Notes: generated by a model from the letters alone, not told the origin. Shown: positions 1,013 to 19,191, counted from the first letter of the stretch. The stretch: 64,000 nt of DNA from Spirochaetota bacterium (GCA_965205605.1 CBDBHE010000002.1:1-64000); one strand, 5' to 3'. Numbers and translations: made by a program.

Positions 1013-1798
1013 ATGAATCTTAAAAAAAGTAAAATTAAAAGTAAAAATGAAATGATTTATTTTGATCAATTTTCTTTTTATTATGGAGAAAATCAGGTGC
1101 TTTTTGATATTAATCTTAAAATTCCTAAAAATAAAGTCATTGCTTTTATAGGGCCATCGGGGTGTGGCAAATCAACTTTACTTAGAAGTGTTAATCGGAT
1201 GAATGATTTGATTGATCATATTAATCATCAAGGAGATATTACAATTGAAGGAGAAAGTGTTTATAATCATAAATTGGATGTAAGCTTTTTAAGAAAAAGA
1301 GTGGGAATGGTTTTTCAAAAATCAAACCCTTTCCCTAAAAGTATTTATGAAAATATTATTTTTAGCCTTAAGATGTCTGGCCTTAATAAGAAAAGCTTTT
1401 TAGATGAAGTAGTTGAAATGAGCTTGAAGAAAGCTTTTTTATGGAAAGAAGTAAAAGATCGTTTGCATAAGAGTGCTTTAAGTCTTTCTGGAGGACAAAT
1501 GCAAAGGCTTTGTATTGCAAGAGCAATTGCTAATTCTCCTGAAGTGCTTTTAATGGATGAGCCTTGTTCTGCTTTAGATCCTATTGCAACAGATAAAATA
1601 GAAGATTTAGTTCAAGAGCTTAGAAAAGAATTTACAATTGTTATTGTTACTCATAATTTACAACAAGCTTCTCGTATATCAGATCAGACGGCTTTTTTTT
1701 ATTTAGGCAAACTGATTGAATATTCAGAAACTGAAAAAATGTTTATTAACCCAGAAAATAAAAAAACAGAAGATTATATTACAGGAAAATTTGGATAA
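1013..1798 (+). CDS. pstB: Phosphate ABC transporter ATP-binding protein
   Basis: [52 protein letters not shown]-terminal [10 protein letters not shown]. Confidence 0.97.
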
Positions 1799-2531: not shown

Positions 2532-4828
2532 TTAATTAGTAAAGTTTAGCTTATAAACTAAGATTTCATTAAACCCATTTAAAGAAACATAAATCTTTGA
2601 ATCAAAATAAGAAATGTCATAAATTTTTTTTTCTTGAGGAACAATAATTTCCAATTTTTCTTTTTTGAAATTAGTGTCGTAAAAATAGATAAGATTTTTC
2701 TTTCTATTAACAGAAAAAATATAATACTTTTGACTGACTTCAATAGGGCCTGGTATAAAGTTTATTTTTATTTTTTGAATGACTTCTCCATCAAAAGTTG
2801 CTTTGATTAATCTAAGATTTCCCCAGTCACTAATTAGTAAAATTTTCTCATTTAAAATAGAGATGTCATTAGGCTCAGAAAGTTGGAGCTGATCAATTGT
2901 TTTGGTTTCTTCGTCTTTTATAAAGATGATTTGATTTTTTGCTGAATTAGCAATTGCTTGTATTTTATATTTGTTATCAACTCCAATAGGAATAGACATA
3001 TTTGAAAGAATTTTAGGTGTAGTAAAAGATTTGTTTTGTTTATTAATTTGAAATAAAACAGCTTGATTTTTTCTTGAATCACTTATGATTAAGTTTTGAT
3101 TATCATAAGAAACATCTGTTGGTAAGAAAAAATTATCCCCACTTACAGGATAATTAAATTTTTGTATTTCATGACCTTTTAAATCAGTCCATAGCACTTC
3201 TTTGTTTTGCCCATCACAAATAAAAATCCCCACTTCACTTACATCAATACCTAAAGCTTGTTTTGTTTTTATTTTTATAGGAGCTTTTTCTTCAATGGTT
3301 CCTTTGTCTAAAACGACAGTTAGATTACTTTTTTGATCTGATTTTATTTGTAAGGACCAATTTTTTTGTTGAAACCCTTTTTTTTCAGCTGTTAATCTAT
3401 AAGTTTCGGGTTCTAAATTAATCGAGTAGAGATTTTCTTTTTCTTTTTTAAAGTCTTCTTTTTGAAAAGTGATGTTTTTTTTGGTATCAGATAAATTGAT
3501 TAAAATATCTTTGTCTTTGATGTTTAAAATAAGTGAAGCGAGTTTCTTTTCTTCAGGTTTTTTTGTTTGTTTGAAGGTTGTAGTGATAGAGATATTTTTT
3601 TTAGGGCCTTTGATAACGATTTTTTTTTTAATGACTTCTTTTGATTTAATTTCTTTAAAGGAGGTTTTGTAAGTGCCTTTTTTGAGGGCTAGTTTTAAAG
3701 GAGTTTTTCCTTTTAATTCGTCATCAATATAGACTTGTGAGGAGGGATCACTTTTGAAGGAAACATTGTATAACTCAACAGATTTTTTTTTTGTTTGAAG
3801 GTTGTAGTAATAAAAATATTTTTTTTAGAGCCTTTGATAACGATTTTTTTTTTAATGACTTTTTTTGATTTAATTTCTTTAAAGAAGATTTTGTAAGCGC
3901 CTTTTTTGAGGGTTAGTTTTAAAGGAGTTTTTCCTTTTAATTTGCCATCAATATAGACTTGTGAGGAGGGATTACTTTTGAATAAGACATTGTATAATTT
4001 AATAGAAATAAGTGATTTTTCTCCTTTTTTTAAATTGATTTTATATTCATAAATAAGACGGTTGATTTTTTCTTTGTAATGGGTATTTTTAGAGGTAAAA
4101 AATTCTTTTTGAAGATGTCTAAACTTTGAATCACTAAAAGGGGGCCTTTTTGTAACAGAGGTGATATCTTCATAGAGTTGAAAAATTGGTTGAGCAATAA
4201 TGTTTTTTATTTTGAGTTCTTTAGAATTTTCTTTTTTAGGGATTAAAAACTGTTTTTTTGGAGAAACCATTTGAGCTATAAACAAATTTGAATAAGCTCC
4301 AACGCCTGATAGTGAGTAAAAATAAACATTTTTTTTATCAACATTACAAATGACATCACCATAAGAGTGTAAATATTTTCCACTTCCCTCTGTTCCAATA
4401 GAAAATCCTTTAATTAGGTTTCTTTTTTCAATAATATCTTTAGGTGCGTGACTTAAATAAACAGTTCCTTTTAAAACTTTAATGACAAAGCGAGTTTTTT
4501 TTGCAGTACTTTTTATTTGAATAAGACTATCGGGAGCTAAAATAAGGCGATTTAATTTTCCAATACTTAAAACTAAAAGACCATTTTTGTCAGTATTTAA
4601 GAAGCCATCTTTAATTTTTGTATTTATTTTAATAATTTTTAAATCACCTTTACTAAAATAATCAACTTGCCCCCTTGAGTAAATAACACTTACTTCTACA
4701 TTAACCAAGCGATAAATCCAATAAGGAACTCGTTTGGCGGATACATTTAAAACAGATTTTGTTTGAGTACAAGAATTACTCAATATTAAAGTGATTAATA
4801 TAATAATAATTGAAAATAATTTTTTCAT
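2532..4828 (-). pseudogene. Frameshifted lipoprotein gene (~765 aa if repaired): signal/lipobox + FecR-like region + tandem PEGA domains + NHL-type beta-propeller
   Basis: ORFs 3713..4828 and 2532..3233 join if 1 nt is added at the A10 run (T10 at 3783-3792). I translated the frame from 3782 to 3233 by hand and found no stop; it continues into the downstream ORF. Lipobox LSNSC; PEGA SNPSSQVYIDGKLKGKTPL twice; NHL-like PTDVSYD..ISDS and EPNDISI...ISDWGN. Confidence 0.75.
3558..3997. repeat. Tandem duplication of a PEGA-coding unit, period 224 bp (225 expected)
   Basis: agacttgtgaggaggga at 3731 and 3955; acattgtataa at 3763 and 3987. The copies differ by scattered substitutions. Confidence 0.92.
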
Positions 4829-4944: not shown

Positions 4945-5250
4945 TCAAGTAAGTGTTTTCCATTTTTCTAGGGCACTGGCAAGATTAATATCTGATCTTG
5001 TGATTTGATTTTTGCTGTGAGTTGTCATTTTAATAGTAATGCTTTTTGTTTTTGTATCAAAGGCAAATTCTGGATGATGATTTTGATTAACAATTGTATT
5101 TGCTAAGTAAGGAAGAAATCGATTAATTTCTTTAAAGTTATCAAATAGGTATTTTTTTTTCAACCAAACTCCGTCTATGTGCCAATTTTCTAAGTCATTG
5201 ACCAAGTCTTCAATTTCTGTTTTAGTAAGTTTTGTTTTATCTTCTGCCAT
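4945..5250 (-). CDS. Pterin-4a-carbinolamine dehydratase (PCD/PhhB family)
   Basis: W..L.K.Y.F.NF, NHHPEF, MTTHS...ITRSDINLA motifs. Confidence 0.88.
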   Translation of the reverse strand: MAEDKTKLTKTEIEDLVNDLENWHIDGVWLKKKYLFDNFKEINRFLPYLANTIVNQNHHPEFAFDTKTKSITIKMTTHSKNQITRSDINLASALEKWKTLT

Positions 5251-5307
5251 TTTTAAAACACCTTTTTATACGAATATTAATATTAATATTATTTTGAAAA
5301 ATGATGT

Positions 5308-6297
5308 TTATTTTTTTTTTGAAAAAAAATAATTGATAAGGTTAATCGCTTTATCACGATTGTCTTGAAAACAAAAAGTATGCTTACTTTTTTTAGTTTT
5401 TAAAGGGAAATTGTCGATGTTTGAGAGAAATCGATAAATTGATTTTTTTAATTTTTTTCGATTAGCAAAAAAACCCCAGCCTGTTTTTTCTAACATAATA
5501 GCATTTAAAAATTGTTCATGTTGAAGATATTCTGGGAAAACCAAAAGAGGTTTTTTAAGATAAAGACATTCTGAGATGATTTGATGACCTGCTGAAGAGA
5601 TGACTCCTTTACATTGAGAAAAAATTTCTAAGAAATTTTTTTTTGAATTTGGAAAAAAAATAAAGTTTTCACTTTTTACTTCTTTTAAAATATTTTTTAT
5701 TTTTTCTTTAATATTACTTTTTACATAAACTAAGATAAAATTTTTTCTATTTATTTTAAGTTTTTTGATTTCATCCCTGATTAAAGGTCCAATATCGCCA
5801 TTATAAAAGGAAGAAACAATTAAAGCGTTTGCTTTTGGCATCATAAAAAAATTGGCGATAATGGCTAGCCAATAACTATAGTGATAATAATAAGGTATTT
5901 TATATAAAATACCCTGATGGTTTAAAAGAAGAGTTGGAATTTTTAGTTGCTTTGATGCCAATACTAAAAAGGGTTCGTAATCGCTTATGATGCCTTTAAT
6001 TTGATGTTTGATTAAATTTTTTTTGATGCTTTCAAGAATTTTTTTTTTTTTAAACATTGTTTTTAAAAAAAGAATGGACGTTTTAAAAATTTGGACTTTT
6101 TCATCTTTTTTAGAAATACTTAAAAGTGGTAGAGAATAAATTTTGATTTTATTTTTTAATAGGGGTTTTAAAAAATAATGAACTTTTTCAGGACACCAAA
6201 TAATAATTTCATTGTTTTTTTGTAATGCTTTTAATAAAGAATAAATTCGACTTGTGTGACCCAATCCGTCTCCACTAAATGAAATTCCAAGTTTCAT
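5308..6297 (-). CDS. MJ1255/VC2487-family GT-B glycosyltransferase
   Basis: GDGLGHTSR, ISDYEP, GPLIRDEI, ILVY, ISSAGHQIISECLYLKKPLLVFP...HEQFLNA. Confidence 0.88.
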   Translation of the reverse strand: MKLGISFSGDGLGHTSRIYSLLKALQKNNEIIIWCPEKVHYFLKPLLKNKIKIYSLPLLSISKKDEKVQIFKTSILFLKTMFKKKKILESIKKNLIKHQIKGIISDYEPFLVLASKQLKIPTLLLNHQGILYKIPYYYHYSYWLAIIANFFMMPKANALIVSSFYNGDIGPLIRDEIKKLKINRKNFILVYVKSNIKEKIKNILKEVKSENFIFFPNSKKNFLEIFSQCKGVISSAGHQIISECLYLKKPLLVFPEYLQHEQFLNAIMLEKTGWGFFANRKKLKKSIYRFLSNIDNFPLKTKKSKHTFCFQDNRDKAINLINYFFSKKK

Positions 6298-6309
6298 GTG
6301 TAGTGGCTT

Positions 6310-7722
6310 TTATACTAACCTTTCTCCTATTTCATTAATATACTTTATTAATGTTTCAATACTTTTTTTAGAAAGATTAAAATTAACAATAATTAACCTA
6401 AAAGAGATTTTTTTTTCGATCATAGAATAATTAACAAAAGCTTTGCCTTCTTTTATGAGTTGATTTCTAATATTTAAATTATGATCGTTTAGTTGTTTTT
6501 CTGTTTTTAAGGCTTTATTTTTATGACGAAAACAAATATTAATAGAAGAGATTGCTTTAACAAGTTCAAAATTAGAATCTTTTTCAATCAAGTTTTTAGT
6601 GTACTCAGCGATTTCAAAAAGAGAATCAATTTTTTTTTCAAAACCATCGTGACCATAACATTTCCAAGCAAGCCAAAGCTTTAAACTATCGACTCTTCTA
6701 CCACATTGAATGGAAAGATGCCCTAAATCAAACTCTTCTTTAGTATCGTGAAACAAGTATTCACTACTGGTTGTTTCATTAATAGATTTTAGCAACCCTG
6801 CTTTATTAACAAGCAGTACCGAACAAATCAAAGGGATACCCATCATTTTATGAGCATCCCAAGCAAAACTATGTGCCATTTCACAGCCTTTCAAAAGAGA
6901 TTTGTGTTTTTTTGATAAAATAACAGATCCCCCCCAAGCTCCATCAATATGAAACCATACTTTGTATTGATGACAAAGTTTAGCTATTTTTTCTATTGGA
7001 TCAAAAGCTCCTAGAACAGTTGTTCCAGCGGTTGCTCCTATAAAAAAGGGAGTTTTTTTATTTTTTTTAGATTTTAAAATTTCTTTTTCTAATACTTCTG
7101 GTATCATTTCTCCTTTCTTGTTGGTTTTGATTTTAGTCATAGATTGACTACCAAGCCCTAATAGGTTAGCTGCTTTTTCAAAAGAATAGTGTGCTTGATC
7201 AGAAACAAAAAAAATTAAATTTTTTTTAGGGTTGATTCCTCTTTTTTTAATTAGAGTATCAAAGTAATTTCTTGCCATAAAAAGAGCAATAAAATTAGCG
7301 TTACTGCCTCCTGTAACAAAAGTTCCTTCTTTGTTTTTAAACCCAATAAGATCACTCATTGTTTTAATGAGTTCTTTTTCTATAAGTGTTGCCATAGGGG
7401 CAACTTCATAGGTATACATAGAGGTATTATTTAATGCGGTAAGTATTTCTCCTACATAGCCCGGTAGAGAAAATCCTGAAAATAGTTGATTATAAAAATT
7501 TTCACTACCTGTTAACACACTATTTTCTAAGTAGGTTTTACTTAAATGAAGTAGCTGGTTTAAACCTTCTCCTTTATTTGTTATTTTGAGGTTTTCTTTT
7601 TTTTTTAACTCAAAAGGAGTTTGATATTGGGTAACAGGGGAGTTTGGATTTTGAAGTTTTTTAATATAGCTCTTTGAAAGAGAGTGAATTTTTTTTAAAA
7701 TTTTTTTCTCTTTTAAATTCAT
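6310..7722 (-). CDS. Group II PLP-dependent decarboxylase, cysteine-sulfinate decarboxylase (CSAD)-like
   Basis: NQLFSG...NNTSMYTYEVAP, HYSFEKAA, ATAGTTVLGAFDP, HIDGAWGG, PLP lysine in AWDAHKM, QCGRRVDSLKLWLAWK. The F-x19-S-x-Y motif is the CSAD type rather than the GAD type. Confidence 0.88.
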   Translation of the reverse strand: MNLKEKKILKKIHSLSKSYIKKLQNPNSPVTQYQTPFELKKKENLKITNKGEGLNQLLHLSKTYLENSVLTGSENFYNQLFSGFSLPGYVGEILTALNNTSMYTYEVAPMATLIEKELIKTMSDLIGFKNKEGTFVTGGSNANFIALFMARNYFDTLIKKRGINPKKNLIFFVSDQAHYSFEKAANLLGLGSQSMTKIKTNKKGEMIPEVLEKEILKSKKNKKTPFFIGATAGTTVLGAFDPIEKIAKLCHQYKVWFHIDGAWGGSVILSKKHKSLLKGCEMAHSFAWDAHKMMGIPLICSVLLVNKAGLLKSINETTSSEYLFHDTKEEFDLGHLSIQCGRRVDSLKLWLAWKCYGHDGFEKKIDSLFEIAEYTKNLIEKDSNFELVKAISSINICFRHKNKALKTEKQLNDHNLNIRNQLIKEGKAFVNYSMIEKKISFRLIIVNFNLSKKSIETLIKYINEIGERLV

Positions 7723-7743
7723 CTATAAATAAAAAGCAAATAT

Positions 7744-8139
7744 TTATTTGGATTTTTTAAAAAAAATTAAGAACATCTCTATAAAAGCGAGTTCGGAAAT
7801 TCTAAACCGATAAGTGTGAATGGTATAGGAAGGAAGTGCAATGATAAAAGAATATAAAGCAGACCATAAAATTTGTGGAGATTTAGCAATCGTATGAATC
7901 AAAAAAGTCAAAATAAACGTTAAAACGGAAGGTAGTAAAATTGCTAATAATTTTTTTTTTTTAGCAAGTTTACGACAAAGTAAGCTCCCTAAAGTCACCG
8001 AAAAACTTGTATAACAAAACTGAACTAAAGCTGCGAAAAAAGCAGACTGCCAATCTTGAGTAAAATTAATAAAAAAAATAGGAATTGCCATTCCAAAAGC
8101 ACTAATTAAAGCCAGTTCGATATCTGTTTTTTTTATCAT
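7744..8139 (-). CDS. Small integral membrane protein (about 4 TM), unknown function
   Basis: Four hydrophobic segments. The ATG at 8139 overlaps the upstream stop (TAATG), so I prefer it to the TTG at 8145. Confidence 0.75.
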   Translation of the reverse strand: MIKKTDIELALISAFGMAIPIFFINFTQDWQSAFFAALVQFCYTSFSVTLGSLLCRKLAKKKKLLAILLPSVLTFILTFLIHTIAKSPQILWSALYSFIIALPSYTIHTYRFRISELAFIEMFLIFFKKSK

Positions 8140-9143
8140 TACCAAAGCTTTCCTGTAATTTTTTTTGTTAAAAGAAAAAAATTAATATATTTTTTTAAAA
8201 ATGACAGAAAAGAGATATTGATAACTTTTGGATCAGTTTTGTTTTGATTGGCAATAAAAAAAAGTAGTGACCATTGTGTTTTTAATTCTGAAAGACCTTC
8301 TTTTAAATTATAACGTTTATCCCAAATGTGTATAAATTCTGAAGTGGCTCCATTGATTTCAATAATTTTAAAGGAGCCTTTTTTAAAAGCATCAATTGAT
8401 TTTGCTTTCACATCCATTCTTCCAAAATAAAACCCATCAATATGGCAGATGTCTTCTACCGTTTTTTTTAGATCTTCTGTAATCCAATTTTTTCTATCAT
8501 AAAAGTTAACGCCTCTTGATCGGCAAGCACTAATGGTTAATTTTTCAACTTGATCTTTTTTAAGAATGGTGCTTAGTTTTTTTTTATAGATTTTTTTAAT
8601 TCGTTTTTTATCATCAAAATCGCTTTTATTAATTAGTGTTTCAAAAGTATTTTTACCATCACCTTTTAAAATAGGAATTTTTTTTTCAGTTAAAGAAACA
8701 ATTTCTCCTTTTTTTTGGTTTGGAAATCGCACATAAAAGATACCAAATTCAAAAGCAGAATCATCATATTTTTGAATTTGATAATCCCACTGTTGTGAGT
8801 CTAAAAGCTTTATAAGAGATTTTTTAGACTTAATAAGTGAAACATCAATCCCTCGATGGGAAGTATTAGGTTTTACAATAACAGGAAGACGATGATTTTT
8901 AATAAAAAGATTAATTTTTTTTTTTTTGTCTAAATCATTTTTTTTGATCACAAGATAAGGGAGAATTTTATTTTGAAATAAATTAAAAATAGAGTCTTTT
9001 GGAGTAAAAGGAAGCCCTCCTAAAATAAAAGCAGGATTTGCTTTAGTGATAATTGATATCGAGGACCTATACTTGATGCAAAGTTTAATAATATGAGGGA
9101 TTAAAAGAGGGTAAAGAAATATAGGAGAAATATTATTTTGCAT
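8139..9143 (-). CDS. ATP-grasp carboxylate-amine ligase (often annotated D-Ala-D-Ala-ligase-like)
   Basis: PVIVKPNTSHRG, QKY...EFGIFY, GDGKNT, GFYFGRMDVK, IIEINGATSE. Confidence 0.85.
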   Translation of the reverse strand: MQNNISPIFLYPLLIPHIIKLCIKYRSSISIITKANPAFILGGLPFTPKDSIFNLFQNKILPYLVIKKNDLDKKKKINLFIKNHRLPVIVKPNTSHRGIDVSLIKSKKSLIKLLDSQQWDYQIQKYDDSAFEFGIFYVRFPNQKKGEIVSLTEKKIPILKGDGKNTFETLINKSDFDDKKRIKKIYKKKLSTILKKDQVEKLTISACRSRGVNFYDRKNWITEDLKKTVEDICHIDGFYFGRMDVKAKSIDAFKKGSFKIIEINGATSEFIHIWDKRYNLKEGLSELKTQWSLLFFIANQNKTDPKVINISFLSFLKKYINFFLLTKKITGKLW

Positions 9144-9173
9144 TTAAAAAAAAGAAATTTTGAGACTTTTTAA

Positions 9174-9914
9174 TTATTCAAAAATCTTTCCTTTTATTGC
9201 GTTATCAGAATATAAATGAAGGGTAAACCCTTCTTCAATGCATTCAACTTTATGAATCAAATTGGTAAAGGTCATTTTCTTTTCATAAGAGTGTAGGGAA
9301 TCTCCTGTTGACAAATACTTTTGACTTGTTTCTACTAAAGAACCATTTTTTTTTTTTTTATAAAACTTCATCAAGCATTTTCCAGATAAAATTTTATAAT
9401 AAGCAAAATTAGGATGAGCATGAATAGGTGTTTTTGAGTCTTTTTTCCAATGTAAAATGATGCCTTCAAAACCAGAACCACTAAGCGTTTTTTCTAATCC
9501 AAATAAAGTTCTTTGATAAGTTTTAGCTTCTCTAGCTTTCATTTTTGAAGGCAGTTGTTCAAGATTTAAATTTTTGTCAATAATTTTGTTAATTTGTTCG
9601 ATTGATTTTTTAGAACTAAGATTCTTTTTTAATTTTTTGATTAATTTCTTCCAAAGAAATTCAAGCCCTGGATAATAAGATTCATTTGGATTTAAAAAAT
9701 ATTCTGGGAAAAATCGTCTTAGAATTTCTTTTAAGGATAAGTTTTTTTTTTCTATTTTCAAAATTAATTTTCTAGTCCAAAAAATCCTTTTTTTAATAAA
9801 AGAAGCAAAAATTGAGATGAAATTTTCTTTTGTGATTTTTCCTTTTAAAAATTCATTAAGGGTTTTTGAATACTGTTCTTGATATGAGTATAGTTTAATA
9901 GGTGAAGGTGACAT
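9174..9914 (-). CDS. Cysteine dioxygenase-like cupin with N-terminal extension
   Basis: YQR (Y58/R60 equivalent), W....TPIHAH (His86/His88), IHKV (His140), TLHLYS (S-H-Y motif equivalent). Confidence 0.8.
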   Translation of the reverse strand: MSPSPIKLYSYQEQYSKTLNEFLKGKITKENFISIFASFIKKRIFWTRKLILKIEKKNLSLKEILRRFFPEYFLNPNESYYPGLEFLWKKLIKKLKKNLSSKKSIEQINKIIDKNLNLEQLPSKMKAREAKTYQRTLFGLEKTLSGSGFEGIILHWKKDSKTPIHAHPNFAYYKILSGKCLMKFYKKKKNGSLVETSQKYLSTGDSLHSYEKKMTFTNLIHKVECIEEGFTLHLYSDNAIKGKIFE

Positions 9915-10149
9915 TTTTTTTAAAGAACAACCTGAGATTATACTTTAATATAAAACATTAATTAATAAAATAAGCAAGACTATAGGTCGCTTATTTAAAG
10001 ATAGATAAGCTTTTTATTTTTATGGTATTTTTTTAATAAAAAACTATTATTTTATTCTTAATTTTTTGCTTTATTATTAAATTAGACTTTTTAAAACCGA
10101 TGATAGGTACAATTGAAAATTATTTTTAAATTAAATTTTTTTTTAAAAA

Positions 10150-11664
10150 ATGACTCATCCTAATCAAATAGATTTTATAAAAACAACTTTAAATAACTTA
10201 TCAGAAAAAGATGGGGAAAATGAAAAAAATATAGCTATTATTTTAGCAGGGGGCGAGGGGAAAAGAATGCGTTCTAAAACACCAAAAGTCATGTTTCCTC
10301 TTTGGGGTAAGGCGTCGATATTGCGTATTTGTGAAGAAGTAGAAAAAGGACTCAAGAAAAATCATCAAGTTGTTGTTTTAGGTAAACAAGCTCTTCGTGT
10401 TGCAGCTCTTTTTCAAAAACAATCCAATCGATCTTTTGTTTACCAATCTCAACAATTAGGCACAGGACATGCGGTTCAAATTGCTTTAAAATTAATAGGA
10501 GAAAAAAAAGATGTTAATGTTTTTATTTTTCCAGGAGACATTGGTTTAATAGATGCTAAAACGCTCAAGGCTTTTCAAAATGCTTTTATTAATAGTAATG
10601 CGGATATGATGATGTTGACAGGAAAGTATCAAGGTGAGAAAAAATTGAATTATTATGGACGCATTCTTAGAGCTAATAAGAAGAGTCATAAGAGTGTGAG
10701 TGATAAAAAAAGTGACCAAAATCAACCAACTATTGTTGGTATTGTGCAACACAAAGAGATACTGGCGATGAAGGGAGATCGTGATTTGGTTAAAAATTAT
10801 CAAGGGAAAATTTTTTCTTATTCTAAAGAAGAATTACTTAATATTGATGAATATGATGCGATGGTTTTTGCTTTTAAGTTTAAACCTCTTTGGAAGTATC
10901 TTTTTTCTCTTAAATCTGATAATCAACAACAGGAATTTTATTTAACGGATTTAGTTGAAATTTTTAATCAAAATAATTTAAAAGTGAGCTCTTGGCAAAT
11001 GGATAAAAATGATTCTCTTTTAGGGTTTAATGATCGATATACTTTAAAAAAAATGGAAAATCTCGCTAGAAAAAGATGTTATGAACTTTTAAAAAATTTA
11101 ATTCATATTGAAGATGAAGATCGTTTTTTTATAGAAGATTCTGTTGTTGCATCTATTTTAAAATTAGCTGGAGAACAATTGAATCTTGATATCCATATAG
11201 GTCGAGATGTGTATGTTGGTAAAGGAGTACAGGTCAATGAAGGCACTTTTTTAGGCAATAGGGCTTATCTTTGTGGATCGATTAAACTGGGAAAAAATAC
11301 TCATATTGGTGAAGAAGTGAGTATAAAAGCAAGTGAAGATGAAGAAATTAAAATTGGAGATTTAGTTACTATTGAAAAAAGATGTACTGTTGAGGGGCCC
11401 TTAAGTGTGGGTCAAGCTGTTTGCATTAAAAGAAACACAACTATTTTAGGGACAAAAAAGTTACCTACTCAAATTGGTTCTTACAGTATGATTGGAGAAT
11501 CTAGTTTTATTCGCTCAAGTATTTTAGATTCTAAAAGTTTTGTTGAACACTCTATTCTTGAAGAAAAACGCACTAAATGCTTTTTTTCAAAAGATGGTAC
11601 GGTTATAAAAATCAAATATTTCAGACCTTCAACATTAGGGAAAGAATCAGTTATTAATTTATAA
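10150..11664 (+). CDS. glmU: GlmU-like nucleotidyltransferase with C-terminal left-handed beta-helix
   Basis: ILAGGEGKRM.S..PKV, QQLGTGHAV, YGRILR, NQQQEFYLTD, LGFN, hexapeptide repeats. Confidence 0.75.
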   Translation: MTHPNQIDFIKTTLNNLSEKDGENEKNIAIILAGGEGKRMRSKTPKVMFPLWGKASILRICEEVEKGLKKNHQVVVLGKQALRVAALFQKQSNRSFVYQSQQLGTGHAVQIALKLIGEKKDVNVFIFPGDIGLIDAKTLKAFQNAFINSNADMMMLTGKYQGEKKLNYYGRILRANKKSHKSVSDKKSDQNQPTIVGIVQHKEILAMKGDRDLVKNYQGKIFSYSKEELLNIDEYDAMVFAFKFKPLWKYLFSLKSDNQQQEFYLTDLVEIFNQNNLKVSSWQMDKNDSLLGFNDRYTLKKMENLARKRCYELLKNLIHIEDEDRFFIEDSVVASILKLAGEQLNLDIHIGRDVYVGKGVQVNEGTFLGNRAYLCGSIKLGKNTHIGEEVSIKASEDEEIKIGDLVTIEKRCTVEGPLSVGQAVCIKRNTTILGTKKLPTQIGSYSMIGESSFIRSSILDSKSFVEHSILEEKRTKCFFSKDGTVIKIKYFRPSTLGKESVINL

Positions 11665-11726
11665 TTGGATTTTTATTAGTATTTGTTTTATATTCAAAGA
11701 ATATTGTATAATGGTTTATCTATAAA

Positions 11727-11761
11727 GTGAATAAAAAATCTATAGTGAATAAAAAATCTAT
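11727..11761 (+). repeat. 18-bp tandem duplication at the start of the HD-GYP gene
   Basis: gtgaataaaaaatctata followed by gtgaataaaaaatctat, giving two possible GTG starts. Confidence 0.8.
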
Positions 11762-12902
11762 TTTAGAATTTGTCAGTGAGATTCACTCCATTAATGACAT
11801 TCAAATTTTATTAGATATTATTTTAAATCAACTAATAGATTTAACTCATGCAGAAGGTGGGTCTATTTTTTTAAAAGAGGGAGCAACTAAGCTCAGATGC
11901 CACTCTCTTCAAGATCGTTCTCTTTTTCAAAAAGAAAATTCTGAAAAAATAGTTTATAACTATTTTCATACTCATGATATTAATATTGATAATTTGTCTA
12001 TTGTTGGTTATGTAGCCAAAACTAAAAAAAATCTTATGATTAAAGATGTTTATAAGATTAGTAATAAGGCTCCTTATAGATTTAATGCAGAATTTGATAA
12101 AAAGTTTTCTTATCGAACTAAATCGATTTTAGCAGTTCCTCTTTTAAACACTAAAAAAGAAATTTTAGGGGTTTTAGAGTTAATCAATGCTCGAAATAGA
12201 AAGAATCATATTATTAATTTTAACAAAAAAAGCTTGATGTATGTCAATTTTTTCTCTGATTTTATTTCTCATATTTTTGAAAAAGCGATTATTATGGAGG
12301 AATCTGTAAATAAATTATTAAAATTAGCCGAAATGAGGGATCCTCAAGAAACTGGTAGTCATGTGAAAAGAGTGGGTTTTTATGCAATTGAAATTTATCA
12401 ACATTGGGCTAAAAAGAAAGGAAAGGCAGAAAATGAAATTAGAAAATTTAAAGATTTATTAAGAATTGCTTCTATGTGTCACGATATTGGAAAAGTCGCT
12501 ATTTCGGATATCATTTTGAAAAAAAAAGGAAGGTTGACTACAGAAGAGTTTAACGAAGTTAAACAACATACGATAGAAGGGGCTAACTTATTTTCTCAAT
12601 CTATTTATGAAATCGACAAACTTACTTTTGATGTTTGTATTTCTCATCATGAAAAGTGGAATGGGACAGGGTATCCAAAAGGATTAAGAGGAAATGAAAT
12701 TCCTTTAGCAGGTCAAATCGTCAGTATTGCTGATGTTTATGATGCGTTAATTTCTGATCGAGTTTATAAAAAGTCTTGGGGTGATCAAAAAACTCTTGAT
12801 TATATGGAAGCTCAAAGAGGAAAGCATTTTTCTCCTTTAGTGCTTGATTCTTTTTTTGCTATTTACGATATTACAAAAGCGATTCGTAATCGATATCAAT
12901 AA
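11727..12902 (+). CDS. GAF + HD-GYP cyclic-dinucleotide phosphodiesterase
   Basis: GAF (FDKKFSYRTKSILAVPL..GVLELIN); ETGSHVKRV, HDIGK, HHEKWNGTGYP, ADVYDAL. Confidence 0.92.
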   Translation: MNKKSIVNKKSILEFVSEIHSINDIQILLDIILNQLIDLTHAEGGSIFLKEGATKLRCHSLQDRSLFQKENSEKIVYNYFHTHDINIDNLSIVGYVAKTKKNLMIKDVYKISNKAPYRFNAEFDKKFSYRTKSILAVPLLNTKKEILGVLELINARNRKNHIINFNKKSLMYVNFFSDFISHIFEKAIIMEESVNKLLKLAEMRDPQETGSHVKRVGFYAIEIYQHWAKKKGKAENEIRKFKDLLRIASMCHDIGKVAISDIILKKKGRLTTEEFNEVKQHTIEGANLFSQSIYEIDKLTFDVCISHHEKWNGTGYPKGLRGNEIPLAGQIVSIADVYDALISDRVYKKSWGDQKTLDYMEAQRGKHFSPLVLDSFFAIYDITKAIRNRYQ

Positions 12903-12957
12903 AAAAAAGTATTCACAAAGTATTAAAGTTTTATTTTTATAAAAAAGGTATTTCAAT

Positions 12958-14007
12958 TTGACAGGTAGTTCAATCATAAAAAAAGCAGGTATTTTTAGGA
13001 AAAAATTTTTAACTTATAAAAAACCTTTAATTATTATTTCCAAACCGATTGATCCTGATTGTATTGGCAGTGCGCTTAGTCTTTCCTGGTGGTTTTCTGA
13101 AGTTAGTCCTTTAAAAGCAGATGTTGTTAGTTTTTTTTATTTGGGAGATAGTCTTATAAAAATGCCTTGTCGTAATAAGGTTAAATTCATTCCTATTGAA
13201 CAATTTATTTTTAATCATTATGATCTTTTTATTTTAATTGATGGAGGTGACTGGAAACAGTTTTTTAAAGATGACTTTCAAAAATATTTATCAAAGATCG
13301 ATAAGAAGCATTTATTTCATATCGATCATCATCAAGAAGGGGTGATTACCTCTGCTTTAGGTGAAAATTCTTTAAGAATTTTGGATAGTTGTGTTGGGAA
13401 AATAATTTATGATTACTTCATCAAGCCTTCTAATTTAAAACTCACTGATGGTATTGCAACTTGTTTGTATATGTCTCTTATTGGAGACACAGGCAATTTT
13501 AGATACCAAATGTATAAAGAAACTTACTCATTTGCAAAAATTTTATATGAAAATGGAGCAAATCACAATATTGCCACAGAAAGTAGTTTTAATAAACAAA
13601 TCATTGATTATACCCAATGGGCGATTAAAAATACAAAATATTACCCAAAAGCTCAATCTACAATTTTGATTTTAGATAAAGAAAATCAAACTATTTTTTG
13701 GGAAATTTTTGGTAGAGACGAAGAAATTCCTAATAATATTGATTATTATTATAAATCTACTTTTATGAGTGTTGTGGAAGGATTTCCTTATTCTCTTGTT
13801 TTTGAATTGAGTAAGAAAGTAGGTATTAAAGTTAGTTGGAGAACAAAAACGGCTTCTCCTATTGAAATCAAGGAGATTTTAAGCTTGATTGGTTTTGAAG
13901 CAGGTGGACATCGAGATGCTGGTGGAGGCAACATTAAAGAATCTAATATCCAAAAAATAGTGACTGTTTTTTTAAATAAAATGGAAGAAACTCTTCAAAA
14001 TCAGTAG
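12958..14007 (+). CDS. DHH/DHHA1 phosphoesterase (NrnA/pAp phosphatase-like)
   Basis: DPDCIG, IDHH, GDTGNF, VSWR, GGHRDAGG. Confidence 0.88.
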   Translation: MTGSSIIKKAGIFRKKFLTYKKPLIIISKPIDPDCIGSALSLSWWFSEVSPLKADVVSFFYLGDSLIKMPCRNKVKFIPIEQFIFNHYDLFILIDGGDWKQFFKDDFQKYLSKIDKKHLFHIDHHQEGVITSALGENSLRILDSCVGKIIYDYFIKPSNLKLTDGIATCLYMSLIGDTGNFRYQMYKETYSFAKILYENGANHNIATESSFNKQIIDYTQWAIKNTKYYPKAQSTILILDKENQTIFWEIFGRDEEIPNNIDYYYKSTFMSVVEGFPYSLVFELSKKVGIKVSWRTKTASPIEIKEILSLIGFEAGGHRDAGGGNIKESNIQKIVTVFLNKMEETLQNQ

Positions 14008-16260: not shown

Positions 16261-17316
16261 TTGTTCTTTACGGCTTATCATTTTGCTTTTTTTAGAGTCT
16301 TTATAGGCTTTTTTCTTTTCTTTTTTTTTTTAAGTTTTTATCAAACAATTAATAGTTCGTTTTTTAGTTTTAATAAAATAAATTTATTTCTTAGTCTTAT
16401 CGCTTCTATCTTTTTAGCAGTTGGTTTTTATAGAAGAATTATTTCTGTTTTTCTTATTTGTTCACTTTTTTTTTTATGGTATCAATTTTTTTTATTGTCT
16501 TTATCTTTAATTGAAGGGATTCATTTTTTATTAGTTATTTACTTAATTTTCATTTTAATGCTTTTTCCTCAAGGAGAAGGGCTTTCTTTTCAGAAAAAAA
16601 ACAAAGTAAGTTTCTTTTATCAAAATCGATTTTCTTTTAATTATTTCTTAATTGCTTGGATATTAGTTTTTAGCTTAATGAGTTTGAAGCTTTATTGGTA
16701 TTTAGAAAAATCAATATTAAATATATTGATGCTCAGTTGTTTTGCTTTATTTTTATTGTTTTTATTTTTTTCTTTTCGGTTGATAAGAGTTTATATTTGG
16801 TGGTTTTCTTTGTTATTTGTTATTTTTTTAGAAGTTGTAAGTAATCAAAATGAAATATTGGAGGGTTCTTTTTTTGTTTTAATGTTTTTTTTATATCAGG
16901 GAGAATATCGATTTTTTCCTTTTAAAGAAAAGAAAATTTGGGTTTTTTTTGATGGATTTTGTTTTATTTGTAATCGTTGTGTTGGCTTTATATTGCAAGA
17001 AGACTTTGAAAAACGGATTAAATATGCTCCTTCTCAAGGAGAAACTTTAAAAAAATCATCGATTGATTTTAAAGATGAGAAAAAAGGTATTTTAGTTGTG
17101 ACTTCAAGAAAAATTTTTAGAGGGCCTAAAGGAATTTTATTTCTTTTATTGACAGTAGGGGGAATTTGGCAATATTTTTTTATTTTTTCTTTAGTCCCAG
17201 GAAAGATTCAACATATTATTTATTATTTTATTAGTCGTAATCGGTATGTTTTTTTTAAAAAAAGAAAACAATGTCGAAGACCAACTAAAGAAGAACAGTT
17301 TTTTTTTCTACCCTAA
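16261..17316 (+). CDS. Multi-pass membrane protein with C-terminal DCC1-like thiol-disulfide oxidoreductase domain
   Basis: Hydrophobic N-terminal two-thirds; FDGFCFIC (DxxCxxC); Y..ISRNRY..F....C. Confidence 0.82.
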   Translation: MFFTAYHFAFFRVFIGFFLFFFFLSFYQTINSSFFSFNKINLFLSLIASIFLAVGFYRRIISVFLICSLFFLWYQFFLLSLSLIEGIHFLLVIYLIFILMLFPQGEGLSFQKKNKVSFFYQNRFSFNYFLIAWILVFSLMSLKLYWYLEKSILNILMLSCFALFLLFLFFSFRLIRVYIWWFSLLFVIFLEVVSNQNEILEGSFFVLMFFLYQGEYRFFPFKEKKIWVFFDGFCFICNRCVGFILQEDFEKRIKYAPSQGETLKKSSIDFKDEKKGILVVTSRKIFRGPKGILFLLLTVGGIWQYFFIFSLVPGKIQHIIYYFISRNRYVFFKKRKQCRRPTKEEQFFFLP

Positions 17317-17342: not shown

Positions 17343-18194
17343 TCAAATTGTTTGGGTGTCTTTTTGAATTAAAAATCCTGAGCTAATTATTAGTATGGCC
17401 CCTATAAAAATAGGAATAGTTATCACTTCTCCTAGAAAAAAGTAGCCTAAAAGCATTGCTGAAATGGTTTCAAAAAAAGAGATTGCTGAAGCCGTGTGCA
17501 CGGGTAATTTTTTTAGACCATAAAAAAATAGTGAAAATCCAATCACTCCAATTAAAAAACTATATAAAGAAGCTAAGCTAATGTGGTAAAAAGAAGTGAA
17601 TGATTTTAAAAAGAAAAGAGTTAGTATTGAAAATAAAAAAGTTCCTACAAGATTTTGGTAGTAAACAGATTCCATTTTAGAAAGGTTTTTAGAAGCTTTT
17701 TTAAATAAAATAAAAAAAAGAGCGTTGCTAAAAGAACATAAAAGCATTAAGCTGATACCAATTAAATCAGTACTTTTTAAAAGGAGTGTTTCTTTGTCTA
17801 AAATAATCGAACAGACTCCTATAAAAGAAAAAATTAATGCTAGAAAATTTTTTTTTGAAATGGGTTGTTTGTAAATAAATTTAGTGATGAAAATCACTAA
17901 AAAAGGCCAAGTGTATAAAATAATTACGGCCTTTCCTACAGAAGTAAAAATAAAAGCAGGGAAATAAAATAATAACCTTAACGTATTAATAAGAGAACAT
18001 AGATAAATAAATTTATTTCCTTTTTTTAGAGATTGTTTATTGCCGGTAATAAGAAAAGTAATGAGTAAAATAATCGTGGGGATTGTGGTTCTTGTCCAAT
18101 AAAGAATGATTAAAGATATTTGAGTGGTTTTGATAAAAGCCCCAGAGCTTCCCCAGATAATCGTAGCGAGCAAAATAGCTAAAAACGGATTCAT
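17343..18194 (-). CDS. EamA/DMT family transporter
   Basis: About 10 TM; IIWGSSG, ILYTWP, LLGYFFLGE. Confidence 0.9.
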   Translation of the reverse strand: MNPFLAILLATIIWGSSGAFIKTTQISLIILYWTRTTIPTIILLITFLITGNKQSLKKGNKFIYLCSLINTLRLLFYFPAFIFTSVGKAVIILYTWPFLVIFITKFIYKQPISKKNFLALIFSFIGVCSIILDKETLLLKSTDLIGISLMLLCSFSNALFFILFKKASKNLSKMESVYYQNLVGTFLFSILTLFFLKSFTSFYHISLASLYSFLIGVIGFSLFFYGLKKLPVHTASAISFFETISAMLLGYFFLGEVITIPIFIGAILIISSGFLIQKDTQTI

Positions 18195-18335: not shown

Positions 18336-18788
18336 ATGAAGTCTATTTTAACATTATCTTACGCGTTTATTTTTAGCATAGGTCTTTTATCGACTGTTTT
18401 AGCTAGGGGCTATAACGCTAATAAAAATAAAGTTGTTATTAGAGGGTATGACCCGGTTGCTTATTTTACTTTAAAAAAAGCAAAAAAAGGCAATAGTCAA
18501 TTTTCGTATGCTTACAAAGGAGGGACTTTTTGGTTTGCTTCAAAAAAGCATCTTAATTTATTTAAAGCCGATCCTAAAAAATATGAACCTCAATATGGAG
18601 GGTGGTGTGCTTATGCTATGGGGAAGTATGATAAAAAAGCACAAATTAATCCTAAAACTTTTAAAATTACTAATGGAAAGCTATATTTGTTTTATAATAA
18701 ACTTGTAGGTGGTAACACACTTAAATTTTGGAATAAAGAAGGAGAAGCAAATCTTATAAAAAAAGCAGATGCTAATTGGAAACAATAA
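18336..18788 (+). CDS. Secreted YHS-domain protein (YHS (seleno)protein family, Cys form)
   Basis: Signal peptide; GYDPVAYF, WFAS..HL.LF...P.KY.PQYGGWCAY, GKLYLFYN, KADANW. Confidence 0.9.
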   Translation: MKSILTLSYAFIFSIGLLSTVLARGYNANKNKVVIRGYDPVAYFTLKKAKKGNSQFSYAYKGGTFWFASKKHLNLFKADPKKYEPQYGGWCAYAMGKYDKKAQINPKTFKITNGKLYLFYNKLVGGNTLKFWNKEGEANLIKKADANWKQ

Positions 18789-18813: not shown

Positions 18814-19191
18814 ATGAGTAAATTTAAAACCATTTTATCTTGGGTATGTAGAATAACCATTTCTGTTATTCTTATTCAAACCTTAAGACATAAATTTGTA
18901 GGCTCAGAACTGAGTGTTTATATTTTCGAGAGAATTGGAATTGAACCTTGGGGAAGATATATGGCAGGTGTTTCAGAGCTCATTGTAGGGATTCTTATCC
19001 TTATCCCTAGAACGGTTTGGGTTGGATCGATTGGAGTGCTGTTTATTATGGGAGGAGCCCTTTTTTTTCATATTACAGACTTGGGCATTGTGGTCAAAGA
19101 AGATGGCGGAACACTTTTTGGTATGTGTTTAACTGTCTTTACTTTGTCAACAATCACTATTTATCTTCATATGAATAAAAGTAAAGCTTAG
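18814..19191 (+). CDS. DoxX-like membrane protein
   Basis: QTL..KF.G...SVYIF...G.EPWGR...G..EL; GALFFH..LGI.V..DGG.LF. Confidence 0.85.
   Translation: MSKFKTILSWVCRITISVILIQTLRHKFVGSELSVYIFERIGIEPWGRYMAGVSELIVGILILIPRTVWVGSIGVLFIMGGALFFHITDLGIVVKEDGGTLFGMCLTVFTLSTITIYLHMNKSKA

Follow-up and report, generated by a model that had tools for sequence, protein, structure and literature searches.

Within a 64,000-nt stretch of DNA from a Spirochaetota bacterium (GCA_965205605.1 CBDBHE010000002.1:1-64000; "the window" below denotes this whole stretch), we resolve six co-oriented minus-strand open reading frames (ORFs) at 4945..9914, which include a relative of cysteine dioxygenase (CDO), a predicted ATP-grasp amide ligase, a decarboxylase resembling CSAD and a glycosyltransferase (GT). 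We tentatively read the cluster as an operon that conjugates hypotaurine or taurine, whatever the acceptor, and place the chance of this at a little under even. The source genome, G000, is 91% complete and comprises 8 contigs with a total of 1.69 Mb. From gene 1 to gene 6, followed by the upstream region, the features are as follows.

9174..9914, minus strand: gene 1, divergent Arg-type cysteine-dioxygenase-family cupin, 246 aa (family profile, conserved residues)
8139..9143, minus strand: gene 2, predicted ATP-grasp amide ligase, 334 aa (family profile, AF2 fold)
7744..8139, minus strand: gene 3, small hydrophobic membrane protein, 131 aa from the ATG, or 133 aa from a TTG at 8145 (weak family matches, translation)
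6310..7722, minus strand: gene 4, CSAD-type group II pyridoxal phosphate (PLP) decarboxylase, 470 aa (PF00282, signature residues)
5308..6297, minus strand: gene 5, GT-B glycosyltransferase of the MJ1255/VC2487 family, 329 aa (PF13528, AF2 fold)
4945..5250, minus strand: gene 6, pterin-4a-carbinolamine dehydratase (PCD) homologue, 101 aa (PF01329 at 3e-17)
9915..10149, no strand: AT-rich divergent intergenic region between gene 1 and a glmU-like gene, 235 nt (presumed promoter region)

Successive ORFs are spaced by 30, -1, 21, 12 and 57 nt, the negative value arising where the small membrane gene starts (ATG at 8139) on the last base of the stop codon of the ligase (TGG TAA TG ATA, a TAATG overlap). 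These gaps and the common orientation, described in an earlier note on this DNA, are confirmed from the ORF coordinates and the sequence. A scan between the cluster genes finds no convincing terminator, and the promoter of the cluster presumably lies within 9915..10149; a consensus scan, which yields 25 promoter-like sites vs 34.5 expected from shuffles, is uninformative in DNA of 25-30% GC. The GC content is 24-31% in cluster and flanks alike, so the cluster does not stand out as foreign by its composition.

The candidate amine supply: genes 1 and 4

A word-based search with the gene 1 protein retrieves one near-identical relative, and an exhaustive HMMER search retrieves 106, mostly 160-200 aa in length. 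The CDO_I model (PF05995) matches neither the gene 1 protein at E 10 nor anything in a six-frame search of the source genome. A family profile built from 50 of the 106 relatives nonetheless matches mammalian CDOs of known structure (human, rat and mouse) at 6.8e-15 to 7e-13 and the Bacillus subtilis CDO at 7e-11, vs 3e-3 to 2e-2 for 3-mercaptopropionate dioxygenases (3-MDOs) and 0.4 for mercaptosuccinate dioxygenase.

In the alignment of these 50 relatives, four residues do not vary (W156, H165, H167 and H221) and three more are almost invariant (Y133, R135 and S236). When compared with the CDO features defined in PMC8050391, namely the 3-His site, the substrate Arg, the Ser-His-Tyr (SHY) motif and the cross-link Cys, R135 aligns with the Arg that binds the substrate carboxylate (Arg60 of rat CDO; YsRn vs YTRN), a position at which Gln would mark 3-MDOs, while H165 and H167 align with the HxH pair (sIHGHP vs SIHDH). 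The third His, H221, lies in IHKVE, corresponding to LHRVE of CDO, where the HMMER alignment is three columns off. The outer-sphere motif T231-H233-Y235 (TLHLY; tLhiYS in the family) aligns with SLHLYS, with Thr replacing Ser. Ala occupies the position of CDO Cys93, so that a Cys-Tyr cross-link would be missing, as in bacterial CDOs. An N-terminal extension of ~100 residues is common to gene 1 and its closest relatives.

Judged by its sequence, gene 1 is a divergent, Arg-type CDO-family enzyme with a 3-His site and a Thr-His-Tyr variant of the SHY motif, and it is predicted to convert cysteine and O2 to cysteine sulfinate. The cysteine dioxygenase proposed in the earlier note is borne out in this way, via the family profile to solved CDOs and the defining residues, with the Pfam threshold not reached. 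In a Myxococcota context check, a match to the gene 1 family at 1e-15 occurs in 1 of 401 genomes, and no decarboxylase lies beside it.

Gene 4 matches PF00282 over its full length at 2.6e-86. Its nearest relative in the PDB is mouse CSAD (337.9 bits, 8.7e-100), followed by GAD65 (331.7 bits, 6.7e-98), human CSAD (330.9 bits, 1.2e-97), GAD67 (324 bits) and GADL1 (316 bits), after which scores drop to 161-196 bits for 2,4-diaminobutyrate (DABA) decarboxylases. By these comparisons gene 4 clearly falls in the CSAD/GAD/GADL1 clade, with a small margin over GAD; its best NCBIfam match is to DABA decarboxylase, at 222 bits vs a cut-off of 900. The PLP lysine lies in DAHK, aligned with NPHK of CSAD.

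The CSAD signature [F/W]-X19-S-X-Y is present as F81-X19-S101-M-Y103. In a preprint that quotes this motif, the first residue is F in mammalian CSAD and W in the Synechococcus enzyme (bioRxiv 10.64898/2026.08.27.747329), and a second preprint gives the CSAD Phe94 position as Ser in GAD and Tyr in GADL1 (bioRxiv 10.1101/2020.09.25.308866). Among 119 homologues of gene 4, 89 have W, Y or F at the first signature position together with S-x-Y, and 16 have F with S-x-A; the five closest homologues that were checked are all F-X19-S-M-Y. With the signature intact, and with mouse CSAD the nearest solved relative by a narrow margin, the earlier assignment as CSAD is supported. The enzyme is predicted from these residues to decarboxylate cysteine sulfinate to hypotaurine, and possibly also cysteate to taurine and Asp to beta-alanine.

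A bacterial CDO/CSAD taurine pathway is described for Synechococcus sp. PCC 7335 (Agnello et al. 2013, ACS Chem Biol, as cited). As far as that system is portrayed in the citing text, the window resembles it in pairing a dioxygenase with a decarboxylase that bears [F/W]-X19-S-X-Y, with hypotaurine as the predicted product. Unlike the Synechococcus pair as described there, the window dioxygenase has diverged beyond the reach of Pfam CDO_I and bears the long N-terminal extension, the decarboxylase has the mammalian-type Phe instead of Trp, and the two genes are split by the ligase and the membrane protein and followed by a GT.

A different use of cysteine would follow if the cupin were an SbzM-like oxygenase that converts cysteine to a sulfonamide building block for subsequent ATP-grasp ligation. 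SbzM itself belongs to the cupins and has cysteine as its substrate, and ATP-grasp genes cluster with some of its homologues, according to PMC9113183. However, the best matches of the gene 1 family profile are true CDOs, the Arg, the 3-His site and the SHY-type motif are kept, a CSAD-signature decarboxylase in the same operon fits cysteine sulfinate, and the window contains no SbzJ-like aldehyde dehydrogenase. We regard the SbzM-like alternative as highly improbable.

The ATP-grasp ligase, its family and the glycosyltransferase

The gene 2 protein matches the Pfam models TTL (1.2e-3) and RimK (4e-3), both below cut-off. Its family profile matches 8fxh in the PDB at 3.5e-12, and CphA2 and cyanophycin synthetase at 3.5e-12 to 3e-8. 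An AF2 model with a pLDDT of 92 retrieves the cyanophycin synthetase G domain, GshAB and Ddl in Foldseek at 7e-11 to 1e-8 with a probability of 1.00. Six residues (K91, E132, R242, D244, E262 and N264) are invariant in 20 ligase sequences, and we take K91, E132, D244, E262 and N264 to be the ATP-grasp Lys and the Mg-binding acidic/Asn positions.

We are confident, on the strength of the model, that gene 2 has an ATP-grasp fold; the ligase named in the earlier note is confirmed through the family profile (8fxh) and the AF2 fold, Pfam giving only the weak matches above. Like the cyanophycin synthetase G domain, GshAB and Ddl, the protein combines this fold with invariant residues at the ATP/Mg positions and would be expected to share their acyl-phosphate chemistry. 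Unlike them, it is only 13-20% identical in sequence, and a conserved helical segment (residues 7-56) replaces the usual N-terminal domain. We predict from its family and position that the enzyme couples the decarboxylase-made amine to a carboxylate.

The ligase family is widespread, with >590 genomic matches in Flavobacterium, Vibrio, Acidobacteriota, Planctomycetota and others. It occurs in 69 of 401 genomes of the window's phylum, and in 66 of 75 genomes of one family of that phylum. Eight loci fetched from the phylum (seven from family f13, one from f57) are all of the Vibrio-like type, with no decarboxylase or GT.

At 73 ligase loci flanked by 5 kb or more of sequence on each side, the neighbours found within 5 kb are YHS-domain genes (44/73), DoxX-like genes (35/73), OlsB/OlsF-type N-acyltransferases (PF13444; 22/73) and OlsA-like acyltransferases (11/73). 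VTT/DedA and TANGO2 genes are also neighbours of the family and are often fused to the ligase. A wider-family module of VTT/DedA, ligase, a 180-aa protein, TANGO2, YHS, DoxX-like and OlsF or OlsB/OlsA is seen in L006 (Vibrio splendidus; 7294-12999), L028, L009, L038, L095 and others, its parts often fused into proteins of 540-930 aa.

In a FastTree phylogeny of 186 ligase domain sequences, the window ligase belongs to a subclade of 26 members (support 1.0), itself nested in a clade of 86 that is mostly of the Bacteroidota type (support 0.96). Membrane-protein partners, including YHS and DoxX-like proteins, persist in this nearer half of the tree.

The window ligase is a homologue, at 30-35% identity, of the ligase of the DinB-TANGO2-DedA::ATP-grasp module, which neighbours OlsB/OlsF aminolipid synthases and is represented in Vibrio cholerae by the VCA0649-VCA0646 operon (bioRxiv 10.1101/2024.12.11.627999), and homologues of the YHS and DoxX partners lie 9 kb from the window ligase. 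Unlike the ligase of that module, the window ligase stands alone, with no DedA fusion, and no TANGO2, DinB-like protein or OlsF is found in the source genome; with respect to that module as described, the combination with an amine-supplying dioxygenase/decarboxylase pair and a GT is unique to the window. No VTT/DedA, TANGO2, DinB-like or OlsB/OlsF gene lies within 16 kb of the ligase. The window ligase is a relative of the ligase of the DedA/TANGO2/DinB module and not a member of that module.

The YHS-domain gene (18336-18788, plus strand) and the DoxX gene (18814-19191, plus strand) encode proteins 36% and 38% identical to the Vibrio partners in L006; the pair, a fragment of the wider-family module, is separated from the ligase by ~9 kb with housekeeping genes between. 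A fusion protein with a DCC1-like thiol-disulfide oxidoreductase (16261-17316, plus strand) and an EamA transporter (17343-18194, minus strand) lie nearby.

Gene 5 matches PF13528 at 8e-36 (124 bits vs a cut-off of 25), Glyco_tran_28_C at 4e-8 and the murG model at 2.6e-10, and its C-terminal half is MurG-like; against TIGR00661 (MJ1255/VC2487) it scores 122.8 bits (1.7e-35), below the cut-off of 195.9. The AF2 model (pLDDT 83, from a 7-sequence alignment) retrieves YojK (1.5e-10), MurG (1.6e-10), YjiC, plant UGTs and macrolide GTs in Foldseek, all between 1.5e-10 and 1.4e-9. The predicted GT-B is confirmed by the PF13528 match and this fold, and gene 5 is, by its model, a GT1/GT28-like GT-B. 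A literature search found no paper on the function of PF13528, MJ1255 or VC2487.

The MurG-like half of gene 5 also bears on the possibility that uronic acids of a surface glycan (a capsule, an O-antigen-like polymer or a wall polymer) are amidated with taurine, a modification described for certain polysaccharides. The genome has a UDP-glucose 6-dehydrogenase (Ugd)-like gene, scoring 528 bits against the TuaD model vs a cut-off of 700, and taurine on the Staphylococcus aureus type 1 capsule is mentioned in PMC12043029. On the other hand, neither the cluster nor the 5 kb around it contains a polymerase, a flippase or any further polysaccharide gene, and only one GT is present; we give a glycan acceptor little credence.

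Gene 3 matches DUF3792 (2.4e-5) and the TIGR04086 membrane protein model (1.3e-4), both below cut-off, and its translation reads as four hydrophobic stretches. These weak matches and the hydrophobic translation agree with the membrane protein proposed earlier. Translationally coupled to the ligase, gene 3 is possibly an anchor or an exporter, to judge from its sequence and position.

Recurrence and genomic setting

We screened 160 ligase-anchored loci (80 genome and 80 metagenome) for homologues of the other genes. Only one, L003 (the same as L083), from a metagenome-assembled genome (MAG) labelled Cyanobacteriota (G041), also has decarboxylase and GT homologues. The decarboxylase, ligase and GT are 39%, 54% and 46% identical to those of the window and occur in that order, with the first two genes overlapping by 4 nt. 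A second locus (L175, in G403), found in one of 150 relatives of this MAG that were searched, has a decarboxylase, an S-adenosylmethionine (SAM) methyltransferase and a ligase (50% identity) on a 4.3 kb contig that ends ~100 nt past the ligase. The methyltransferase gene between the CSAD-like decarboxylase and the ligase (1115-1696, minus strand) encodes a 193-aa SAM-dependent enzyme (PF08241, 6e-12), a sign that the amine may be N-methylated, or the product methylated, in that lineage. A gene 3 homologue is absent at both loci.

Over the four loci with usable flanks among the 26 subclade members, the decarboxylase is linked to the ligase in three and the GT in two, with a third cut off by a contig end. 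The trio occurs in two independent lineages with different gene orders, and a functional link between ligase, decarboxylase and GT is supported by these gene neighbourhoods. The co-conservation that the earlier note proposed as a check is found for the ligase, GT and decarboxylase (at L003) but not for the dioxygenase, which is absent in G041.

The two related loci bear directly on the identity of the amine. If the decarboxylase acted mainly on Asp, in the manner of GADL1 or PanP, it would supply beta-alanine to the ligase and perhaps to pantothenate synthesis, and the cupin would do something else. The decarboxylases of G041 and G403 have the GADL1-type Tyr and no adjacent dioxygenase, Asp is also decarboxylated by CSAD-family enzymes (bioRxiv 10.1101/2020.09.25.308866), and the source genome has PanC without PanD. 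In the window, however, the decarboxylase has Phe and the full CSAD signature and shares an operon with a CDO-family gene. Moreover, the combination of PanC with no PanD recurs in 6 of 8 same-order relatives, which also lack this decarboxylase, so gene 4 is not needed to explain the supply of beta-alanine, and we judge beta-alanine an improbable amine. Over the order as a whole, PanC is present in all 9 genomes and PanD in 2, so most of these spirochaetes must obtain beta-alanine by another route.

For the dioxygenase, co-occurrence with gene 4 relatives was judged by a matching source and an identical contig size. Three of the 10 closest dioxygenase relatives (P0047, P0052 and P0053) match contigs of decarboxylase homologues (P0153, P0154 and P0170; contig sizes 10474, 28550 and 23748 nt), which rank 2nd, 3rd and 19th among the non-self decarboxylase matches. 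A further relative, P0046, which is the only other one aligned over the full 246-aa length, matches the contig (58,947 nt) of a ligase of the subclade, P0017.

These contigs also bear on whether the cluster is no more than two unrelated neighbouring modules: a CDO/CSAD pair that disposes of cysteine or makes free taurine, next to a ligase/GT pair serving some other purpose. In bacteria, CDO/CSAD pairs are found that lack partners of this kind (Agnello et al. 2013, as cited), and the three dioxygenase/decarboxylase contig matches come without a ligase. In the window, however, the ligase and membrane genes are interleaved between the dioxygenase and the decarboxylase; elsewhere, a CSAD-like decarboxylase accompanies the ligase in both G041 and G403, and one dioxygenase relative matches the contig of a subclade ligase. 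We hold a chance juxtaposition to be distinctly improbable and keep the conjugating operon as our reading.

Gene 6 was proposed in the earlier note as a further member of the pathway, but this is not supported: PCD is missing from both L003 and L175, only 1 of 5 same-order relatives carries it, and the source genome has no pterin-dependent hydroxylase (Biopterin_H). The suggested link to pstB and phoU is likewise unsupported. These genes (1013-1798 and 1810-2508) are on the opposite strand, 2.4 kb from the cluster and separated from it by two unrelated minus-strand genes, and the distance from phoU to the glmU-like gene is 251-924 kb in four single-contig relatives.

On the other side, divergent from the cluster, the glmU-like gene (10150-11664, plus strand) encodes a 504-aa protein with nucleotidyltransferase and hexapeptide acetyltransferase parts, which scores 188 bits vs the GlmU equivalog cut-off of 450 and has counterparts of 37-39% identity in 4 of 5 same-order relatives. 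We attempted to place island boundaries by synteny and abandoned the attempt, as these relatives lack synteny and are too remote (37-39% identity in the glmU-like protein). Downstream of the cluster, the C-terminal 89 residues of a PEGA-domain protein (3713-4828, minus strand) have a 73% identical second copy immediately downstream of it (3818-3561, by tblastn), which is a local partial duplication or a remnant.

A candidate pathway and its acceptor

With the gene arrangement, family memberships, specificity residues and trio recurrence as observed, we infer every substrate, the order of the steps and the lipid nature of the acceptor as follows. Genes 1 to 5 would form one pathway operon. Gene 1 would oxidize cysteine to cysteine sulfinate in an oxygen-dependent step, and gene 4 would decarboxylate this to hypotaurine, which may later be oxidized to taurine. 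Using ATP, gene 2 would activate a carboxylate as an acyl phosphate, which the amino group of hypotaurine or taurine would attack to form an amide. Gene 5 would build or decorate the carboxylate-bearing acceptor. The likeliest acceptor would be the hexuronic-acid head group of a membrane lipid, giving a phosphorus-free sulfinate or sulfonate glycolipid that gene 3 would hold or move.

Our confidence differs among the parts of this scheme. The cluster probably makes hypotaurine, and we lean towards the ligase using that amine, while a glycolipid as the acceptor is somewhat doubtful. The haem-copper oxidase encoded in the source genome and the Ugd-like gene make oxygen and UDP-glucuronate plausible there. 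The lean towards a membrane lipid is suggested by the company that the ligase family keeps (VTT/DedA, DoxX-like, YHS, TANGO2 and OlsB/OlsF genes) and by the YHS-DoxX pair 9 kb away. An aminolipid was considered as the acceptor and set aside, as the 91%-complete source genome yields no PF13444 protein (OlsB/OlsF/GlsB type) and no OlsF by tblastn.

Several observations weigh against this reading. The gene 1 protein receives no Pfam or NCBIfam assignment even at E 10, and PF05995 is matched at E 0.01 by 27 of its 50 relatives, so that not all pass. For gene 4, CSAD and GAD65 score nearly equally (338 vs 332 bits), and the call of specificity therefore rests on the motif. For the association of genes 1 and 4, the contig matches indicate at most that close relatives of the two lie on common contigs, which is less than adjacency, and none of the next 10, more distant dioxygenase relatives has a contig match. 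No dioxygenase-like gene is found in G041, and the sole candidate in G403 is a CDO_I match of 22 bits on a different contig; in both, the decarboxylase carries Y-X19-S-x-Y, with Tyr as in GADL1. A trio without the dioxygenase and with Tyr in another lineage means that the ligase subclade is not tied to cysteine oxidation. Another subclade ligase (L084, 46% identity) has none of the partners within 7.5 kb.

Within the order, the dioxygenase, the ligase, the GT and any close counterpart of the decarboxylase are missing from all 8 relatives, so that within-lineage conservation cannot be judged. As for the acceptor, the gene 5 fold fits GT1 small-molecule enzymes and MurG equally and does not separate a lipid from a small molecule. 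OlsB/F genes lie within 6 kb at 0 of 51 loci in the 86-member ligase clade vs 35 of 93 among the remaining sequences, so the aminolipid link belongs to the farther half of the family. Homologues of OlsB/F, TANGO2, DinB-like and VTT proteins are not found in the source genome, by a PF13444 search and by tblastn at 1e-3.

The same points bear on a soluble product, in which the amide formed by the ATP-grasp enzyme from hypotaurine or taurine and an amino or organic acid would be glycosylated by the GT, giving an osmolyte, an antioxidant or a secondary metabolite. The GT model fits YojK, YjiC, plant UGTs and macrolide GTs as well as it fits MurG, the nearest ligase folds act on soluble peptides, an aminolipid or DedA partner is missing from the source genome, and the G403 cluster includes a methyltransferase. 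A soluble conjugate fits less well with a membrane protein translationally coupled to the ligase and with a wider ligase family that is membrane- and lipid-associated, and we consider it unlikely.

The glycolipid that we favour as a product has a counterpart in Hyphomonas, where taurine is reportedly amide-linked to uronosyl diacylglycerol in a taurineamide glycolipid (a 1996 study). This was the product type first proposed for the cluster, and the Hyphomonas lipid has no known genes. GT1/GT28-like families are inverting in the CAZy classification, so an alpha-glucuronoside is not expected from UDP-alpha-GlcA, unlike in the Hyphomonas lipid.

A second precedent is cerilipin of Gluconobacter cerinus, formed by ATP-dependent transfer of taurine to the carboxyl of a hydroxylated ornithine lipid (Tahara et al. 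1976-78, in PMC12971839); that review gives the gene for this transfer as still unknown. The step as described there, in which ATP drives amide formation between taurine and a carboxylate, is chemistry of the ATP-grasp type, and the ligase family is aminolipid-associated elsewhere. Unlike in cerilipin formation, the source genome is without OlsB/OlsF, so an ornithine lipid is an unlikely acceptor here.

More broadly, gene 2 may be the first ATP-dependent (hypo)taurine:carboxylate ligase acting on a lipid head group to be identified at the level of a gene, and thereby the enzyme type behind both cerilipin and the Hyphomonas taurineamide glycolipid, with the DedA/TANGO2-associated ATP-grasp family in general amidating lipid head-group carboxylates. 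We think this unlikely as a whole; if true, the amine supply encoded beside the ligase would reveal the general job of that family. Literature searches (on taurine, ornithine lipid and ATP-grasp; on hypotaurine and dioxygenase clusters; on taurineamide; and on the V. cholerae operon) found no description of such a cluster in a body of papers that excludes most subscription journals.

The chemistry of taurine-bearing lipids and glycans has been known for decades, and the cluster is a compact, clonable candidate that holds an amine supply, a ligase and a GT in 5 kb. It offers a foothold on a widespread, unstudied ATP-grasp family that neighbours aminolipid synthases and bacterial TANGO2 homologues. 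Even with a non-lipid acceptor, the cluster would extend taurine biosynthesis to spirochaetes and add a new, divergent subfamily of CDO.

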